In this document: positions 2,821-19,436 of the stretch, piece after piece
How the letters are laid out: every line of letters starts with the position of its first letter
Numbering within the stretch: position 1 is the stretch's first letter
Origin: a virus
Taxonomy: Duplodnaviria; Heunggongvirae; Uroviricota; Caudoviricetes
IMG/VR virus record: IMGVR_UViG_3300045988_004821
Length of the DNA stretch: 64,000 bases
Reading direction: 5' to 3' (one strand)
The notes under the pieces: generated by a model
Told to the model about the DNA's origin: nothing
Seen by the model: the letters and a program-made list of their open reading frames with translations, nothing else
Databases searched by the model: none
Program-made: the position numbers and the translations under genes

Positions 2821-4400
2821 TCTATCCAATCCTTATACAATCCCTTTCCCTTTCCTTTCCAGAATCTTATCAGACCTTAAAAGCAATAACTCTATAGTCC
2901 ACTCTATAACCTTTTATCAAATCAACTTAAATATAAGCCCATAACCCGAAAGGGAAGGGCAACCCCTTAAACGCTCTATAACGCCCTATAACAGCCTTAT
3001 CAACCTAACTTAAGGGGTTGCATTAACTCACCCTAAAAAGCCCTTCCTAGAGCTTCCCAGAGACTTAAAAGAATCTTATAAGGGTGTAAGCTTTATCATC
3101 TCATTAGTATTCTTGTGAATATCTAAAAAGGGTTTGTTAGTGTCTTAAAAGTATGTTATAGGGGGCTATAAAGTTGCTTAAAAGTTACGTAAAAGAGGCT
3201 ATAAAGTTACGTAAATGCTAGCCCCCTTAACATTTTCTTAACAATTTCTTAACAATCCCTACATAGTTATGCTTGTTAGAGACTTGTTAGCCCCTTGTTA
3301 AATCTCTGTTAAGACCACGTAAAAGCCTTGTAAGAGTCTTTGACATAGCCTTAAAAGCTCCTGTAAAGCTCTATAAAGAGGTGTCTGTACAGTTGGGGGG
3401 ATAGATACTAGGAAGAGACTTAAAAGAGCTTATAAAGAGCTATAGAGAGCTTTTAAGAGGTATGTTTAAGAGTTCACTAAGAAGGGAAAGGGAACGATAA
3501 GAAAAGAGTAGTGACCATGTTAATAGCTTGTTAAAAAGATTAAACACTTGTTAGAAACTTGTTAATTACCTTAACAAAATAACTCTTTAAAATTAACTTG
3601 TTAGCTCTTGTTAGTCATCTGTTAAGATTCTGTAAAGCCCTATTAAGTCTTGTTAGAAAACTGTTACAACCTTGTTAGACTTGTTAAGAATCTGTTAAGA
3701 CCTTTGAAGAGTTGTTAAGAAGATGTGAGAACTGTTAAGAGATTGTTAAGGATATTTTAAAATTTTGCAAAGTACTTGTAAGGGAGCTGTTAAGGGCTAC
3801 CAAGCAGATATACATCTTCTACAGATATTTTTCAGTTCCTTCAAAGACCCTAAAAAATGACTTGATAGTCCTATTTTATAAAAATTTTAAGATTCTGAAT
3901 AATTACCTATACAGCCTTTTAAAAATACAGGTAGAAACAGGCTTATAAGATACCTTGTTAGTACCGTGTTAGACCTTGTGAGATAAGGTCTGTAAAGATA
4001 TTCCTGTTAAGTTTGTTAAAACAGTCTATATAGAGGCTTAGTAGTACCTAGTGAACACCTATAGAGAGTAACATAGCTAACCTAGAGATTAAGAGGTGTA
4101 TAGGAGCTTCTAAGAGGGTATAGAGAGATGGTTAAGATGATTGTATAGGTTGTTTAGAAGGCTTGTTAGAAGAGTGTTTAGATGGCTATTTAGAAGGGCT
4201 ATACAGAGGGCTATTAAGACCACTAGATAGTTACTAAGATACTATATAGTACTATATAACTATATAGAGAGTAAGATTAAGAAGGTTGTTAAGAAGGATA
4301 GATATTTTATTCACATATGATGGTGACCCAGAGGTTGGGACAACCGATAAAATTTTATAAAAATTAAAAAGCCCCCAATTAAGGAGGCTCTTAAGATATT
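2821..4400. repeat. ORF-free AT-rich region with dense arrays of short motifs (CTTGTTAG, CTGTTAAGA, CTTAAAAG, CTATAAAG, TTTAGAAGG), many at 11-12 bp spacing
   Basis: No ORF of 60 aa or more on either strand across 1.6 kb; more than 17 TTGTTA-type motifs in 3520-3790 alone. Confidence 0.6.
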
Positions 4401-13013: not shown

Positions 13014-14429
13014 ATGAGCGAATTATTTAAACATGCGCACCTTCATGCAGGTCGAACTGAAAATGGTGCTGTAAACCATACTTCATCAATGTCTGCTCTT
13101 GTGGACTTTTACAAAGCTGCTGGTTCCAGCCGTAGCAATGTAGAAATCTTACCAGACCTGTTCTACAAAGCTTTGCGTGAGGATGTTGATGTTGCAGTTC
13201 GTATTTTACTGCATATGCGAGATGTACGAGAAGGTATGGGTGAGCGTAAAGCCTTCAGAACTGTTTTGCTTCAAGCGATTGAAGACAAAGTTTTAGAACC
13301 TGTACAGGTTCTTCGCATTATGGATAAGATTGCAGAACTTGGTCGTTTTGATGACTTCAAAATCTTCGTAGGTACTCGTTTCGAGACAGATGCCTTCAAA
13401 CATTTAGAAGCAGCATTACTAGACCCTGCAACAGCAGGTTTGGCGGCTAAGTGGTTACCACGAGTCAAACCACGTCATAAGCAGTTTGTAAAACGTTTCT
13501 GCAAGTTTGCCAACTTAAGTGAGAAAGAGTACCGCACACTGTTGTCTGCACTATCTGATACAGTTGAGCAAAAAATCTCTGCTAATGAGTTTGGTAAGAT
13601 TGACTACAGTAAGATTCCTTCACTTGCTGCTGCACGTTACCAAAAACTGTTTAACCGTAAAGATGGAGAACGCTACAAAGCTTACATCGAGTCATTATCA
13701 AAGGGTGAGGCTAAGATTAATGCTGGTGCTGTTTACCCATACGATGTGATTAAATCTGTTAAGTATGGTAATGCAGATGTTGCTAATGAGCAGTGGAAAG
13801 CACTACCAAACTGGATGGCAGAGGGTGAGAACATTTTGTGTATGACTGATGTCTCAAGCTCAATGTCTTGGGTGAATTTCGGTTCAATCACTGCTCTTGA
13901 TATTGGTGTATCTCTTGCACTGTATGTAGCAGAACGCAATACTGGTTGTTTTAAAAATGAGTCAATGGTTTATTCAACAAACCCTCACTTCATCGAACTG
14001 AGTGGTGATTTACGAAACCGTCATCGTCAGGTAATGCGTTATACTGAATATGGTTCAACTAACTTACAAGCAGCTTTTGACCGTATTCTTGAGACAGGTA
14101 AAAGAAACAACTTGACTCAGAAAGATATGCCAAGTAAGCTTATCATCTTCTCCGATATGGAGTTCAATCAGGTTGATGGAGCTAACGGTCGTACAAACTT
14201 TGAAGCAATTCAGAGTAAGTACAAAAAAGCTGGATATGAGATGCCACAACTGGTATTCTGGTACTTAGCAAACCGTAATGGTACTTGCGAAGTATCTGTT
14301 AAGGATAACGGTGTAGCAATGGTATCAGGGTTCTCTCCAGCCACTTTAAAAGCTCTGCTTGGTGGTGAGAAGTTTGACCCAATCAGCGTAATGCTCAAAG
14401 CAGTAATGATTGACCGTTATATCTGGTAA
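13014..14429 (+). CDS. VWA-domain protein with N-terminal helical domain; Ro60 (TROVE-VWA) / DUF2828-like architecture
   Basis: Intact MIDAS motif DVSSSMS in the C-terminal half; N-terminal TENGA motif; 471 aa; sits directly upstream of the tRNA array. Confidence 0.5.
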   Translation: MSELFKHAHLHAGRTENGAVNHTSSMSALVDFYKAAGSSRSNVEILPDLFYKALREDVDVAVRILLHMRDVREGMGERKAFRTVLLQAIEDKVLEPVQVLRIMDKIAELGRFDDFKIFVGTRFETDAFKHLEAALLDPATAGLAAKWLPRVKPRHKQFVKRFCKFANLSEKEYRTLLSALSDTVEQKISANEFGKIDYSKIPSLAAARYQKLFNRKDGERYKAYIESLSKGEAKINAGAVYPYDVIKSVKYGNADVANEQWKALPNWMAEGENILCMTDVSSSMSWVNFGSITALDIGVSLALYVAERNTGCFKNESMVYSTNPHFIELSGDLRNRHRQVMRYTEYGSTNLQAAFDRILETGKRNNLTQKDMPSKLIIFSDMEFNQVDGANGRTNFEAIQSKYKKAGYEMPQLVFWYLANRNGTCEVSVKDNGVAMVSGFSPATLKALLGGEKFDPISVMLKAVMIDRYIW

Positions 14430-14447
14430 AAAGTTTTAAAAAGGGTA

Positions 14448-14476
14448 TTGACAATGTGTTTAATACCCTTTAATAT
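14448..14476 (+). promoter_or_regulatory. sigma70-type promoter (TTGACA-17-TAATAT) upstream of tRNA array
   Basis: Consensus -35, 17-bp spacer, near-consensus -10, A/T-rich upstream tract; a second TTGACA box at 14539. Confidence 0.6.
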
Positions 14477-14594
14477 GTTCTACATAGAAACGAAATGAGA
14501 GCTTTTCTAAGATACTGAAAAATATTTTAAAAAAGTTCTTGACAACCACTAAAAAATAATGTTAAAGTGGTTACATAGAGTTTGAAAAGTTTAT

Positions 14595-14671
14595 CTCTGT
14601 TTAGCTCAGCTTGGTAGAGCGTTCCGTTTGGGGCGGTAAGGCCGGAGGTTCAAGTCCTCCAACAGAGACCA
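14595..14671 (+). tRNA. tRNA-Pro (anticodon TGG)
   Basis: Cloverleaf by eye: acceptor CTCTGTT/AACAGAG, D-arm GCTC..GAGC, T-arm GGAGG-TTCAAGT-CCTCC, encoded CCA; one mismatch in anticodon stem. Confidence 0.6.
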
Positions 14672-14678
14672 AATTAAT

Positions 14679-14756
14679 GTTCCAGTAGACAAAATGGTAA
14701 AGTCACCACTCTTTCAAAGTGGATATTTGAGGGTTCAAATCCCTTCTGGAACGCCA
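14679..14756 (+). tRNA. tRNA-Glu (anticodon TTC)
   Basis: Acceptor GTTCCAG/CTGGAAC, anticodon arm CCACT-CTTTCAA-AGTGG, T-loop TTCAAAT, CCA encoded. Confidence 0.7.
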
Positions 14757-14762
14757 GTTTTG

Positions 14763-14837
14763 ACAGAAGACCAATTACAGCAAACTTAATCTACTCATCT
14801 GAAAGTTAATCGGACAAAGAAGATATTTGGTCTGGTC
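14763..14837 (+). ncRNA. stem-closed spacer element, copy a (AGACCAA..TTGGTCT arms, TTACAGCAA box)
   Basis: One of four copies with conserved ACAGAAGACC..TTACAGCAA 5' end and GGTCTGG 3' end; arm sequence covaries between copies. Confidence 0.4.
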
Positions 14838-14846
14838 ATTAAGAAT

Positions 14847-14923
14847 TGCGGGTATAGAGAAAGGGCGTCTCACATGTCTCATTAGCATGGTATCGGCAGG
14901 TTCGACTCCTGCACCCGCCTCCA
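14847..14923 (+). tRNA. tRNA with CAT anticodon (Met or Ile-lysidine), position 1:72 unpaired
   Basis: Anticodon arm CATGT-CTCATTA-GCATG, T-arm GCAGG-TTCGACT-CCTGC, CCA encoded; T1 opposite C72. Confidence 0.5.
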
Positions 14924-14928
14924 AATTT

Positions 14929-14996
14929 ACAGAAGACCGTTTACAGCAATATTTATTAAATTTTTAGCGGAAAAAATTGAAATATACGGTCTGGTA
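14929..14996 (+). ncRNA. stem-closed spacer element, copy b (AGACCGT..ACGGTCT arms)
   Basis: Same architecture as copy a with compensatory arm change CAA/TTG to CGT/ACG. Confidence 0.4.
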
Positions 14997-15007
14997 ATAC
15001 TAAACAT

Positions 15008-15084
15008 GGTTAGGAAGCACATAAGGTATGTGCGGTCGCCTGTTAAGCGAATGGCACAGGGTTCGAATCCCTGACTAACCGCCA
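15008..15084 (+). tRNA. tRNA-Asn (anticodon GTT)
   Basis: D-arm GCAC..GTGC, anticodon loop CTGTTAA, T-arm CAGGG-TTCGAAT-CCCTG, CCA encoded. Confidence 0.7.
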
Positions 15085-15093
15085 AATTTAAAT

Positions 15094-15181
15094 GTGTCGT
15101 TATCCCGTAGATGGTAGCGGTGGGGACTGTAAATCCCTTGTCATTGAGACTCGGTAGGTTCGACTCCTACACGGCACACCA
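15094..15181 (+). tRNA. tRNA-Tyr (anticodon GTA), long variable arm
   Basis: 88 nt; anticodon arm GGGGA-CTGTAAA-TCCCT; T-arm GTAGG-TTCGACT-CCTAC; CCA encoded. Confidence 0.7.
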
Positions 15182-15186
15182 ATAAA

Positions 15187-15264
15187 GGTTATGTAGTTTA
15201 ATTTGGTTAAAATACTCCCCTGTCACGGGAGATGATGAGGGTTCAAATCCCTTCGTAACCGCCA
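15187..15264 (+). tRNA. tRNA-Asp (anticodon GTC)
   Basis: Anticodon arm CTCCC-CTGTCAC-GGGAG; acceptor GGTTATG/CGTAACC; CCA encoded. Confidence 0.7.
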
Positions 15265-15292
15265 ATTTTGAGAGGGCTATTTAGCCCCTCCC

Positions 15293-15320
15293 TTAAAGGG
15301 TTCTTACGAGTATCCTTTAA
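15293..15320 (+). promoter_or_regulatory. conserved hairpin TTAAAGG-[GTTCTTACGAGTAT]-CCTTTAA
   Basis: Second copy at 18407-18430 has the same 14-nt loop (1-2 changes) and a covarying stem (TAAGG/CCTTA). Confidence 0.45.
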
Positions 15321-15325
15321 AGGAG

Positions 15326-15400
15326 CAGAAGACCAAATACAGCAAGTTACTTAAAATTTCAAGCCAATTTAATTTTGAAAAATTTAAAACTTGGTCTGGC
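15326..15400 (+). ncRNA. stem-closed spacer element, copy c (AGACCAA..TTGGTCT arms)
   Basis: Conserved 5' CAGAAGACC..ACAGCAA and 3' GGTCTGG ends. Confidence 0.4.
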
Positions 15401-15411
15401 TCAACAAATTT

Positions 15412-15545
15412 ACAGAAGACCGTTTACAGCAAAACTTAAACAATCTATTTCTCGGTAAAGAAAAGGCGAAGGTTCGATTCCTTCACTCGGCAGATGTCGA
15501 GTTGGTGTAATGGTAGCACTTAAGATGATAAACAACGGTCTGGTA
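15412..15545 (+). ncRNA. stem-closed element, copy d, containing a circularly permuted tRNA-like module (Y-RNA-like candidate)
   Basis: Outer arms AGACCGTT/AACGGTCT; inside, T-arm GAAGG-TTCGATT-CCTTC, then acceptor-like 7-bp stem ACTCGGC/GTCGAGT closed by loop AGAT, then TG and D-arm GTGT-AATGGTA-GCAC. Confidence 0.45.
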
Positions 15546-15688
15546 ATTATCTTTGTAGATAAGTTATTAAGCTTACCTGTGAGTATGCGACCACAAAGGG
15601 TGAAAGGGTAAATTCTAGATTTAAACCCAAAAAGGCACATCGCTACAGACCTTAAGCAAGTCTGGGTAGCTTATCTACAAAGATAATT
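15545..15688 (+). ncRNA. element bounded by a perfect 19-bp inverted repeat (AATTATCTTTGTAGATAAG / CTTATCTACAAAGATAATT) with 106-nt interior
   Basis: Perfect inverted repeat at 15545-15563 and 15670-15688; interior has a nested hairpin CTACAGAC..GTCTGGGTAG; abuts tRNA-Lys. Confidence 0.35.
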
Positions 15689-15692
15689 TAAT

Positions 15693-15768
15693 GGAAGTGT
15701 AGCAGAATGGTGATGCGGCAGACTTTTAATCTGACAGGCGATGGGTTCGAATCCCTCCACTTCTACCA
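15693..15768 (+). tRNA. tRNA-Lys (anticodon TTT)
   Basis: Acceptor GGAAGTG/CACTTCT, anticodon loop CTTTTAA, T-loop TTCGAAT, CCA encoded; T-stem has a bulge. Confidence 0.6.
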
Positions 15769-15772
15769 ATAT

Positions 15773-15849
15773 GGTTCAGTCGCAGATAAGGTAATGCAAG
15801 GGTCTCATAAGCCCTATGAATGTGGGTTCGATTCCCATCTGAACCTCCA
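15773..15849 (+). tRNA. tRNA with CAT anticodon (Met / Ile-lysidine / initiator-like GGG:CCC anticodon stem)
   Basis: Anticodon arm AGGGT-CTCATAA-GCCCT; acceptor GGTTCAG/CTGAACC; CCA encoded. Confidence 0.6.
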
Positions 15850-15850
15850 A

Positions 15851-15926
15851 GCTGGTATAGTTAAGAAGGTTATAACACTCCCCTGATAAGGGAACATCGG
15901 TGGTTCGATTCCACCTACCAGTACCA
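15851..15926 (+). tRNA. tRNA-Ile (anticodon GAT)
   Basis: D-arm GTTA..TAAC, anticodon loop CTGATAA, T-arm GGTGG-TTCGATT-CCACC, CCA encoded. Confidence 0.7.
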
Positions 15927-15941
15927 ATTTCAATAAAGTTG

Positions 15942-15970
15942 TTGACATTGAGATGTGACTACTTTATAGT
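15942..15970 (+). promoter_or_regulatory. sigma70-type promoter (TTGACA-17-TATAGT) inside tRNA array
   Basis: Consensus -35, 17-bp spacer, TATAGT -10, A/T-rich upstream. Confidence 0.6.
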
Positions 15971-16174
15971 AACCTTAGTTTTCGTTGCGTAGCGTCTATT
16001 TTGCAAATTTAAAATAAATGCAAACGACAATGTTTTTCTGGCAGTAGCTTGATAGGCTAAACACCAGTGAGGTCTTCCAATCCCTCATCAAAGAATTTGG
16101 CGTACTCGCCCACGGTATGATTAATAAGGTGGGCATCTTTAAGGGCTTTCTAAGAGAGTCTTTAAAGATAATTA

Positions 16175-16256
16175 CGGGGCGTATCTCAGCGGTCTTCTAA
16201 ACCGCCGTTAACCGAGTAAGTGGAGTATGCGGGTTCGAGTCCTGCCGCCTCGACCA
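16175..16256 (+). tRNA. atypical tRNA-like element (acceptor/T-arm minihelix; hairpin with TCT in a 7-nt loop where the D-arm should be; possibly degenerate tRNA-Arg)
   Basis: Acceptor CGGGGCG/CGCCTCG, T-arm GCGGG-TTCGAGT-CCTGC, CCA encoded, but no canonical D-arm and no anticodon arm at the expected position. Confidence 0.35.
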
Positions 16257-16399
16257 ATTTAGTTAGCAGATTACTTAGACGACCTTATCGGGTCTTCCTG
16301 TAGGGAGGTGGTCTGTATCTCATGTTTTCCAGAACATGTAAATAATCTGAGAAGGGGCTTTACAGTGTTGAGATAATACGGTAAGCTTCGAATTATAGT

Positions 16400-16482
16400 A
16401 TGGGACGATGTTAAGACTCTAAGGCATGAGCAACGGCTTCCAACACCGTTTCAAAGGGGTTCAACTCCTCCGTCCCATGCCA
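16400..16482 (+). tRNA. tRNA-Trp (anticodon CCA) with extended D region
   Basis: Perfect acceptor ATGGGAC/GTCCCAT, anticodon arm ACGGC-TTCCAAC-ACCGT, T-loop TTCAACT, CCA encoded; D region about 7 nt longer than canonical. Confidence 0.5.
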
Positions 16483-16495
16483 AAGTCTTATTAGG

Positions 16496-16583
16496 GGTAG
16501 GTAGCGGCTAATGGCAGCCAAACAGTCTTGAAAACTGTTGCCACTGTAGAGATACGGTGAGGGTTCGACTCCTTTACTTACCG
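16496..16583 (+). tRNA. tRNA-Ser (anticodon TGA), long variable arm; CCA not encoded
   Basis: Anticodon arm AACAGT-CTTGAAA-ACTGTT; acceptor GGTAGGT/ACTTACC; discriminator G. Confidence 0.65.
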
Positions 16584-16840
16584 CCTAATAAGATTTACAC
16601 CGTCCATGCTTGCTCGCATTTTCGGTTTATCCCTCGTGTATTGTCGTACACACTGATAAAGCACCTAGTAGGTGTCACGGAGAAGAGATAATATCAAGCT
16701 CTCCAAAGGTTCTAGTCACCGGATTAAACAAGACTATGCAAAGACCTTTTTAGGTCTTTTTAGAGGGCTTCTAAGGTTATTACAGCTTGTTGTGGAACCT
16801 TGTTGCTTAGGTTCTTAGAAGTTCTCTAAAAAGATTTAAT

Positions 16841-16918
16841 GGGAGATTGACGGTAATTGGTAAACCTACCATCCTTAGAAGTTGGTGTTTGAGGGTTCGA
16901 ATCCCTTGTCTCCCACCA
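16841..16918 (+). tRNA. tRNA with Leu anticodon TAG but short (class-I) variable region
   Basis: Acceptor GGGAGAT/GTCTCCC, Leu-like D-arm GGT-AATTGGTAA-ACC, anticodon loop CTTAGAA, discriminator A, CCA encoded; 78 nt. Confidence 0.5.
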
Positions 16919-16925
16919 AATTAAT

Positions 16926-17001
16926 GCAGGTGTAGCAAAATGGTTATGCGGCTGACTCTTAATCAGTAAGACGATGGGTTCAATTCCCTCCACCTGTACC
17001 A
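16926..17001 (+). tRNA. tRNA-Lys (anticodon CTT)
   Basis: Anticodon arm GCTGA-CTCTTAA-TCAGT; acceptor GCAGGTG/CACCTGT; CCA encoded. Confidence 0.6.
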
Positions 17002-19343: not shown

Positions 19344-19436
19344 GGAAGATTAACCCTAAAAGGTAAGGGAGCAGTTTGCTAAACTGCCAGTAGCTGAGAA
19401 ATCGGTGTACCAGTTCAAGTCTGGTATCTTCCTCCA
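19344..19436 (+). tRNA. tRNA-Ser (anticodon GCT), long variable arm
   Basis: 93 nt; perfect anticodon arm GCAGT-TTGCTAA-ACTGC; T-arm ACCAG-TTCAAGT-CTGGT; CCA encoded. Confidence 0.7.

Follow-up and report, generated by a model that had tools for sequence, protein, structure and literature searches.

What does a long, perfectly paired inverted repeat do in the middle of a phage tRNA array? The window, that is, the whole 64,000-nucleotide stretch of DNA analysed here, belongs to a Felix O1-like phage (Felixounavirus), and the repeat, together with the interior that it encloses (hereafter, the unit), sits in a plus-strand array of 25 tRNA genes. It starts within 1-2 nt of the end of a small RNA gene, element d, and ends 4 nt 5′ of tRNA-Lys(UUU). 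A preliminary description made from the sequence alone had noted a perfect 19-bp inverted repeat between these two genes. This repeat was confirmed, with positions 15545-15563 (AATTATCTTTGTAGATAAG) being the exact reverse complement of 15670-15688. As RNA, the pairing extends to 22 bp (15545-15566 with 15667-15688) with one U.G pair, and to 24 bp in the minimum-energy fold with two further U.G pairs; this closing stem is designated P1. Among inverted repeats with loops of up to ~380 nt, it is the longest perfect one in the 64-kb window, the runner-up being 13 bp long. Since the longest inverted repeats in 100 first-order Markov resamples of the window ranged from 11 to 15 bp, the earlier judgement that its length is beyond chance stands. 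No second copy of the arm sequence was found in the window, even when 3 mismatches were allowed.

The RNA spanning 15540-15692 has a predicted fold energy of -48.3 kcal/mol, with a z-score of -5.9 relative to dinucleotide shuffles. P1 provides the uninterrupted double-stranded RNA of at least 20 bp (~two helical turns) that is a feature of RNase III substrates, and it does not have the features of an intrinsic terminator, the stem being A+U-rich and followed by UAAUGGAAG. Rfam scans were performed on 7 kb and then on 396 nt, both at E values up to 10; in the scan of 15545-15688 against Rfam 15, no family was matched, Y RNA and YrlA included. The unit is thus absent from Rfam, and it is either unannotated in phage records or mis-annotated as a coding sequence, as in the record of phage Bas63, where its RNA is annotated as a minus-strand CDS. 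The features of the locus are listed in Table 1.

Table 1. Positions of the unit, its predicted substructures and neighbouring features in the window
Feature	Position	Strand	Remarks
Ro60-like protein gene	13014..14429	+	471 aa; Pfam DUF2828 + DUF7788; orthologue of Bas63 gp130
Two sigma-70-like promoters	14448..14568	+	TTGACA-17-TAATAT and TTGACA-18-TAAAGT; ahead of the tRNA/ncRNA array
Element a	14768..14833	+	Short-form Y-RNA-like gene
Element b	14934..14992	+	Short-form Y-RNA-like gene
Element c	15330..15397	+	Short-form Y-RNA-like gene; AGACCAA-AUACAGCAA-45 nt-UUGGUCU-G
Element d	15410..15546	+	Long-form Y-RNA-like gene; also delimited as 15417-15541; its P0 helix overlaps the first 2 nt of P1
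P1, 5′ strand	15545..15568	+	19 perfect bp; 22 bp including one U.G pair; 24 bp including three such pairs
H1, 5′ domain hairpin	15573..15603	+	Predicted from minimum-energy folds; weakest part of the model
H2, central hairpin	15606..15628	+	4-bp base, 2-nt 3′ bulge, 5-bp top
H3, small 3-bp hairpin	15634..15644	+	Predicted, weak
H4	15646..15664	+	CAGAC-CUUAAGCAA-GUCUG; stacked on the P1 3′ strand
P1, 3′ strand	15665..15688	+	Partner of 15545..15568
4-nt leader UAAU	15689..15692	+	Between P1 and tRNA-Lys
tRNA-Lys(UUU)	15693..15768	+	Kept as downstream neighbour in Ounavirinae and Yersinia phage P778
Second long-stem element	16750..16836	+	~26 bp with G.U; just 5′ of tRNA-Leu(UAG)

The unit is a stable feature of this phage group. 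Escherichia phages VpaE1_ev035 and adrianh have this region with 100% identity, Felix O1 with 99.2%. A total of 253 phage records match the flanks, of which 190 carry the same form of the unit (allele A) and 60 a second form (allele B) whose interior is largely different (~250/253 with a unit); allele B occurs in Mooglevirus, Suspvirus and some Felixounavirus. No empty site was found among these 253 records. The preliminary description had proposed presence or absence in relatives as a check for a neutral palindrome, and this distribution speaks against one. In a scan of IMG/VR with GAAGACCNNNNACAGCAA, mostly chance matches in coding DNA were obtained, and the closing helix was found in Felix-like contigs only.

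The predicted fold consists of P1 (24 bp) carrying a multiloop of ~96 nt with H1, H2 and the weak H3, plus H4. The sequence of H1 is wholly different among allele A, allele B and the counterpart in Yersinia phage P778 described below, whereas the loop region of H2, AUUCUAGAUU, is invariant across alleles A and B; in allele B, H2 has an additional 7-bp lower helix with 3 covarying pairs. H4 is the nested hairpin with an AGAC/GTCT core to which the preliminary description had drawn attention; it is real, and its likeness to the elements in the neighbouring spacers, also pointed out there, became the main lead of this study. Its 9-nt loop ends in an invariant AGCAA (conserved loop pattern UU.AGCAA), and in allele B the hairpin reads CAGACC-CUUUAGCAA-GGUCUG or, with a G-C to A-U covariation, CAAACC..GGUUUG.

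Across 16 Ounavirinae sequences, 98% of the alignment cells pair as predicted, compared with 26-47% when the partners are slid by 1-3 columns, and the observed covariation score was reached by none of 500 shuffles. Five pairs are changed on both sides, four in P1 (U-A to C-G twice, G-C to C-G, U.G to G-C) and one in H4 (G-C to A-U). For P1 alone, 4 of 24 pairs in alignment A3 are changed on both sides and 97% of the cells are paired; P1 of allele B is 23 bp long and, in the Moogle type, contains a single C.U mismatch. Within allele B, five compensatory pairs were found, three of them in H2 and one in H4. Several A-to-G changes on one arm produce G.U pairs. In 8/8 representatives, the predicted fold of the plus strand is more stable than that of the minus strand, by 0.7 to 11 kcal/mol; both observations speak against a cruciform in DNA and against an RNA made from the minus strand. 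The unit thus folds as a plus-strand RNA, and this fold is under selection. The earlier suggestion of a second structured RNA therefore gains support from covariation of the stem and the interior, from the plus-strand G.U pairs and folding energies, and from the P778 fold. Two small ORFs that overlap the unit, one on the minus strand (15410-15640) and one on the plus strand (15510-15611), were considered and rejected, given 1-nt indels and the total replacement of the sequence in allele B; because such indels occur inside the unit among close relatives, it is not coding.

A counterpart was found in Yersinia phage vB_YenM_P778, whose gene order matches that of the window, with a Ro-like gene followed by a tRNA array, and whose Ro-like protein is 53% identical to the one encoded here. 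The P778 unit (~165 nt, L139:9493-9657) lies directly 5′ of tRNA-Lys(UUU), and its sequence is unrelated to that of the window unit. Its closing stem of 16+8 bp has no sequence similarity to P1 (fold z = -3.4), its H2 has the shape seen in the window (4-bp base, 2-nt 3′ bulge, 6-bp top and triloop), and its H4, AAAGUC-CCUUAGCAA-GACUUU, is again stacked on the closing stem. A covariance model built from Ounavirinae only finds this unit in full length (27.8 bits, E 0.0017, 1.4 Mb searched), as the best match outside Felix-like phages among 84 loci with Ro-like genes. This score is no higher than that of the model on the reverse strand of Felix units and thus mostly reflects the long stem, so that position and fold carry the argument. 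Common to the three lineages (allele A, allele B and P778) are the two-turn stem, the branch pattern and an H4 loop ending in AGCAA. Covariance model R1 detected no homologue of the unit beside the Ro-like genes of the other phage groups in the 84 loci; a search of IMG/VR gave no close relatives of P778, and the metagenome scan yielded no intermediate lineages. Because no such element was found beside other phages' Ro-like genes, the link between the unit and the Ro-like protein rests on location and a short motif.

The Ro60-like gene stands directly upstream of the tRNA array, and the unit follows 1.1 kb downstream of it on the same strand. Proteins of this kind were found by tblastn in ~710 phage records and are annotated in mycobacteriophages as 'Ro-like RNA binding protein'. 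The best PDB matches of a profile of five such proteins are TROVE/Ro60 structures (9L5Y, 9KOP, 1YVP), which are weak matches with E values of 0.14-0.31, and an AlphaFold model predicted for the Ro-like protein from its sequence alone was unusable, with a pLDDT of 44. The orthologue in Bas63 (JohannRWettstein) is gp130, with the locus tag bas63_0130. In the PhageMaP preprint (PMC11482910), this protein is reported to be structurally very similar to Ro60 and to act against the ppl defence system; the same authors guessed that some of the downstream 'tRNAs' might be Y RNAs, naming none. In bacteria and phages, Y RNA genes adjoin Ro60 genes (PMC4201824, PMC12135203).

With respect to transcription, no strong promoter-like site was found between the two promoters listed in Table 1 and the unit, a single weak 9-of-12 match being present at 14926. 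A scan of 14300-17000 revealed no plus-strand terminator-like sites except a stem at 14440-14471, which overlaps the first promoter and has no T-run. No Felixounavirus transcriptome data were found in the literature. Further along the array, the 3′ strand of the second long-stem element ends in AAAGAUUUAAUG, like that of P1, and an AGACC-UUUUUA-GGUCU hairpin precedes this element. A kissing loop between the AAGCAA of H4 and a UUGCUU at ~16803 was considered and set aside as speculation, as the Moogle type (UAGCAA) keeps UUGCUU and there is no covariation.

The lead provided by H4 is best followed through elements a-d. In all four, a covarying 4-bp outer helix (UGAC/GUCA, UUAC/GUAA or GAGC/GCUC) is followed by an AGA/G internal loop and a helix AGACCNN/NNGGUCU, with UUACAGCAA placed directly after the 5′ strand and a variable insert thereafter. 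In element d, P0 (UUAC/GUAA) and the AGA/G internal loop lead to the helix AGACCGUU/AACGGUCU, then to UACAGCAA and an insert with a T arm, a closed acceptor hairpin and a D arm, which is a circular permutation of a tRNA-like domain and has the layout of YrlA; the YrlA covariance model gave no match to the element in 15300-15695 at E up to 10. We performed a scan for the general pattern, namely a helix of at least 7 bp, 0-4 nt, CAGCAA, up to 170 nt and the complement of the helix, in 84 Ro-like loci totalling 717 kb: that of P778 (L139), three from other GenBank phages (L140-L142) and 80 from IMG/VR. The scan yielded 149 matches on the gene strand, compared with 15 on the other strand and 13 in shuffled sequence, and a replicate on 78 independent metagenome loci yielded 100, 14 and 11, respectively. 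Among the 100 plus-strand matches of the replicate, the helix starts with AGG, AGA or UGG in 76, and a G follows it in 88. The family is thus enriched ~tenfold beside Ro-like genes in ~160 phage loci.

Members of this family have the layout helix, UUACAGCAA, insert, helix, GU, and were defined by a helix start of (A/U)G(G/A), an insert of 30-170 nt and a 3′ strand ending in (C/U)C(U) followed by G(U). Elements a-d have all of these features. In the window they are the only carriers of the signature, the five other matches of the scan lying in coding sequence and lacking it; these Y-like RNAs are linked to the Ro-like gene. The P778 members use other helices (GGACUGU, GGAUUC and GGACUC), and tRNA genes occur within 4 kb, always on the same strand, in ~35 of the 80 IMG/VR loci. 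Long forms of the family give sub-threshold, often full-length matches to YrlA (Finnry, 39.5 bits; L151, 39.1; L192, 38.9; L210, 30.8), and the Rfam model of Dictyostelium Class I RNAs covers short forms over their whole length at 24-30 bits, which is below its gathering score of 41.5. Class I RNAs are ~60 nt long, with a covarying terminal stem, a conserved 5′ G, (CC)UUACAGCAA by the 5′ strand and a 3′ CUGU (PMC7919456); the short form of the phage family has the same layout. One member, at locus L148, sits on a 22-bp stem a few nucleotides 5′ of tRNA-Pro, so long terminal stems do occur in the family.

How does the unit relate to this family? H4 likewise has an AGAC(C)/(G)GUCU helix followed by G, its loop, which begins directly behind the 5′ strand, has AGCAA at its end, its stacking on the terminal stem parallels that of the family helix on P0, and H4 belongs to the same operon. 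In contrast, the H4 loop (UUAAGCAA or UUUAGCAA) lacks the C of CAGCAA, its helix has 5-6 bp, and it carries no variable insert; the extra hairpins of the unit are instead placed in the 5′ internal loop, where family members have the small AGA loop. The terminal stem has 24 bp, compared with 4-7 bp in the family, save for the 22-bp stem of the L148 member. The H4 helix of P778 likewise lacks that phage's own family signature. Tested against the family definition, the unit falls outside it; because three family features fail, it is to be regarded as a derived relative or lineage-specific companion rather than a member. Hairpins of the H4 type (helix of at least 5 bp, loop of 8-10 nt ending in AGCAA) were not enriched beside other phages' Ro-like genes: the plus strand had 15, of which 6 belong to Felix-like phages or P778, and the minus strand had 10.

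Compared with known Y RNAs, including YrlA and YrlB of Salmonella and Yrl1 and Yrl2 of Thermus phage phiLo, the unit fits the size range of ~80-150 nt (PMC4201824, PMC12135203). Its ends likewise form a long stem carrying a large internal loop or multiloop, it lies within a few kilobases of a Ro60-type gene on the same strand (~4 kb being the criterion for Y RNAs), and it is located among tRNA-like noncoding RNAs. It differs in that its stem is perfect, where theirs are bulged, and in that the putative partner is of the DUF2828 type rather than a canonical Pfam TROVE protein. Neither allele A nor P778 contains the Ro-binding motif, which is GGUCCGA in animals and GNCGAAN0-1G or CGAA in bacterial and phage RNAs. 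Two allele-B phages, Sf18 and KPS64, have GCCGAAG, the other allele-B phages having GCCGAUG, and because GCCGAAG is confined to these two phages we did not count it as evidence. The unit has no T arm or tRNA-like domain, and no match to YrlA (RF02553) was obtained in 15300-15695 at E up to 10.

Two other systems invite comparison. As with the RNase III stems of rRNA operons and of the T7 early region, a long duplex of ~two turns flanks a structured RNA within a polycistronic transcript of stable RNAs; T7-type sites have internal loops, whereas the stem of the unit is perfect, and in contrast to rRNA-type stems, the RNA enclosed here is small and is not a known functional RNA. The species 1 and 2 RNAs of phage T4 are small stable RNAs of unknown function that are encoded in a tRNA cluster and released by tRNA-processing enzymes. 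By this general description, the unit resembles them as a small non-tRNA RNA among phage tRNA genes; to our knowledge, T4 has no Ro-like protein gene beside its tRNA genes.

Several explanations of the unit were weighed. Its 19-bp terminal inverted repeats around a short noncoding interior have the outward form of a miniature inserted element, as the preliminary description had suggested, yet the probability of a MITE or other recent insertion is negligible: the unit is present in a single copy in the window, no copies were found in 5,426 complete E. coli genomes, it is fixed at one site in the relatives without an empty counterpart, no target-site duplication was found around it (the flanks being GGT upstream and TAAT downstream), and its arms change by compensatory substitutions. 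A palindrome acting at the DNA level, as a cruciform, a recombination or replication signal or the target of a homing endonuclease, could account for the perfect repeat in the DNA, and homing endonuclease genes are present in the tRNA region of some relatives. This is very improbable, as several G.U pairs in the stems of other alleles would be mismatches in DNA and on the minus strand, the internal helices covary, and the plus-strand RNA always folds better than the minus-strand RNA. A structured RNA that acts independently of the Ro-like protein and is tied to tRNA-Lys(UUU), as a decoy or inhibitor for a host nuclease or defence system directed at tRNA-Lys or as a regulator of tRNA-Lys supply, deserves more weight and is still rather improbable. 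Anticodon nucleases often target tRNA-Lys(UUU), and tRNAs encoded by phages can counter such nucleases; moreover, this tRNA is the sole neighbour that the unit keeps in both Ounavirinae and P778, the remaining tRNAs being differently ordered. Against such a role, the unit has no similarity to an anticodon stem-loop or to a known decoy, and the AGCAA motif ties it to the Y-like family.

The main task of the unit might instead be RNase III processing and insulation within the tRNA precursor, its core being a functionless passenger. Cleavage of P1 would then split the upstream noncoding RNA cluster from tRNA-Lys-Met-Ile and leave a short leader for RNase P. A stem of at least 22 bp, or ~two turns, is kept in three lineages with different sequences, which is more than closure of the fold needs, and a 24-bp helix is an expected RNase III target, fitting a processing role at least as well as that of a protein-binding stem. 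Elements c and d and the unit are three consecutive non-tRNA elements, which implies a need for endonucleolytic cuts beyond those of the tRNA-processing enzymes. In addition, hairpins at 16750-16836 and 16135-16169 precede tRNA-Leu(UAG) and tRNA-Arg(UCU), respectively, both of which follow long spacers, and both hairpins have the 3′-strand sequence AAAGAU(AA)UU in common with P1. However, a multi-hairpin core with covarying helices is kept in alleles A and B and in P778, as are the invariant loop motifs AUUCUAGAUU and UU.AGCAA, which is not expected of a passenger. Because the core is conserved, processing is not the whole story; as the sole explanation we regard it as unlikely, though deserving serious attention, and as one function among others it is compatible with a Y-RNA-like role.

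We therefore favour, tentatively and at somewhat less than an even chance, the reading that the unit is a stable, Y-RNA-like noncoding RNA cut from the tRNA precursor, and it is probably part of the phage's Ro60-like RNA-protein system. An RNA of ~148 nt (15545 to ~15692, plus strand) would be transcribed within the tRNA/ncRNA polycistron from the promoters near 14.45-14.57 kb. Its 3′ end would be set by an RNase P cut at 15692/15693, 4 nt past P1, and its 5′ end by the cleavage that sets element d free; P1 may also be trimmed by RNase III, which would be compatible with the Y-RNA-like reading. The fully paired ends would shield the RNA from exonucleases. In descent, it may be a derived relative of the Y-RNA-like set a-d that accompanies the Ro60-like protein: the AGAC(C)/(G)GUCU-G helix with its AGCAA loop would correspond to the module that a-d carry beside the terminal stem, and the variable 'effector' part would lie in the internal loop of the unit rather than in the apical loop. 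Through this H4/P1 module, the RNA may bind either the Ro60-like protein or some partner that it has in common with a-d; H1-H3 would form a lineage-specific effector surface, and the RNA would act in the RNA-handling and anti-defence role of the protein.

A bolder extension can be formulated, which we consider unlikely in its entirety. The 144-nt RNA would represent a new architecture of Ro60 partner, with a double-stranded RNA 'handle', a minimal AGCAA module and effector hairpins in the internal loop, and together with a-d it would make up a five-RNA set that equips the DUF2828 protein to counter defence or to control the quality of tRNAs. RNAs with the layout 'stem-UUACAGCAA-insert-stem-GU' at ~160 loci would then be a large unrecognised Y-RNA family, and its short form would correspond, in viruses of prokaryotes, to the Dictyostelium Class I RNAs, currently held to be unique to dictyostelids and to have no known mechanism.

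The unit is best described as a new variant among phage Ro60/Y-RNA systems. Phage tRNA arrays are usually annotated as tRNAs with meaningless spacers or spurious small ORFs, and here the spacers contain conserved structured RNAs. They are candidates for the RNA partners of the Ro60-like protein, and for the orthologue of this protein in Bas63 an anti-defence phenotype against ppl has been shown experimentally; with the exact coordinates supplied here, such partners make the mechanism of the protein testable. The conserved two-turn duplex abutting tRNA-Lys(UUU) offers a clean model for how phages may punctuate and protect polycistrons of stable RNAs. Beyond Felix O1-like phages, an unannotated noncoding RNA family with hundreds of phage members is added to the world of Y RNAs, and the CAGCAA family provides an unexpected lead on the function of the Dictyostelium Class I RNAs.

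Elements a-d, which occupy spacers of the tRNA array (a-c in a short form, d in a long form), are part of a widespread phage RNA family. Its layout runs from a covarying helix beginning (A/U)G(G/A), through UUACAGCAA and a variable insert, to the 3′ strand of the helix and a final GU. Beside DUF2828 Ro60-like genes, 149 family matches were found on the gene strand, versus 15 on the opposite strand and 13 in shuffles (an approximately tenfold enrichment), and a replication gave 100, 14 and 11, respectively. The family is absent from Rfam 15. In about 35 of 80 IMG/VR loci, tRNA genes lie at most 4 kb from the DUF2828/DUF7788 gene, on the same strand in all. The product of the corresponding window gene is orthologous to Bas63 gp130, a ppl counter-defence factor (PMC11482910).

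Short-form elements in the window, L140, L202, L192 and L210 align end to end with RF01414, the Rfam model of Dictyostelium Class I RNA, on the gene strand in every case, at 15-30 bits, which is below the gathering score of 41.5. As published (PMC7919456), Class I RNAs are ~60 nt long and have a terminal stem that covaries, a 5′ G that does not vary, CCUUACAGCAA adjoining the 5′ strand, and CUGU on the 3′ side; the phage family has these same features. The reported occurrence of Class I RNAs is restricted to dictyostelids. The insert of element d forms a circularly permuted tRNA-like domain: GAAGG-UUCGAUU-CCUUC makes up its T arm, ACUCGGC-AGAU-GUCGAGU its closed acceptor hairpin and GUGU-AAUGGUA-GCAC its D arm. 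YrlA has this same layout; despite it, element d gave no match to the Rfam YrlA model, and long-form relatives in L142, L151, L192 and L210 gave sub-threshold matches.

Coordinates of the RNA elements, genes and other features
Feature	Locus	Position	Strand	Details
Elements a, b, c, d	window	14768-14833; 14934-14992; 15330-15397; 15417-15541		family loci L139-L304
RF01414 matches	window	14935-14993; 15331-15398	gene strand
RF01414 matches	L140	3140-3193; 3598-3660; 3844-3898	gene strand
RF01414 match	L202	1658-1720	gene strand
RF01414 match	L192	5937-5991	gene strand
RF01414 match	L210	3427-3483	gene strand
DUF2828/DUF7788 Ro60-like protein gene	window	13014-14429		directly upstream of tRNA array
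Near-consensus sigma-70 promoter	window	15942-15970		TTGACA-17-TATAGT, 11/12 matches
Hairpin	window	16135-16169		directly 5′ of tRNA-Arg(UCU)
tRNA-Arg(UCU) gene	window	16175-16253		Rfam tRNA model, 31.7 bits; annotated in relatives
Hairpin	window	16750-16836		~26 bp; directly 5′ of tRNA-Leu(UAG)
tRNA-Ser(GCU) gene	window	19344-19436		anticodon loop 19376-19382
Two odd tRNA-like genes	L139 (Yersinia phage P778)	8990-9400		between tRNA-Ala and P778 unit
bas63_0137, bas63_0138 (GenBank "hypothetical protein")	L224 (Bas63)	2844-2996; 3008-3118	minus

Hairpins also precede tRNA-Arg(UCU), a gene not called by ARAGORN, and tRNA-Leu(UAG). Their 3′ strands share AAAGAU(AA)UU with that of P1, the closing stem of the 144-nt unit, a predicted structured RNA directly 5′ of tRNA-Lys(UUU); the tRNA-Leu hairpin then runs on as UUUAAUG, as in P1, and the tRNA-Arg hairpin reads AAAGAUAAUUAC. 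The tRNA-Leu hairpin is preceded by an AGACC-UUUUUA-GGUCU hairpin and contains UUACAGCUU and a loop, UGUUGCUU, which is complementary to AAGCAA of H4, the 3′ hairpin of the unit; no covariation for this pairing was detected in Moogle. The tRNA-Ser(GCU) anticodon loop, UUGCUAA, is the exact complement of UUAGCAA, the H4 loop in P778 and in the divergent allele B of the unit, and the AGC codon is contained in AGCAA, invariant across all the elements. This complementarity may be a coincidence. The two odd P778 genes have an acceptor stem and a T arm together with large internal insertions (~70-90 extra nt), and one gives a weak tmRNA match.

The promoter-like site lies within the array, directly after tRNA-Ile; its presence suggests two or more transcription units there. 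In Bas63, element d and the 144-nt unit are overlain by the coding sequences bas63_0137 and bas63_0138, both of which are almost certainly spurious. Knock-outs of these two annotated genes in genome-wide screens would actually reflect the element d and 144-nt non-coding RNAs.
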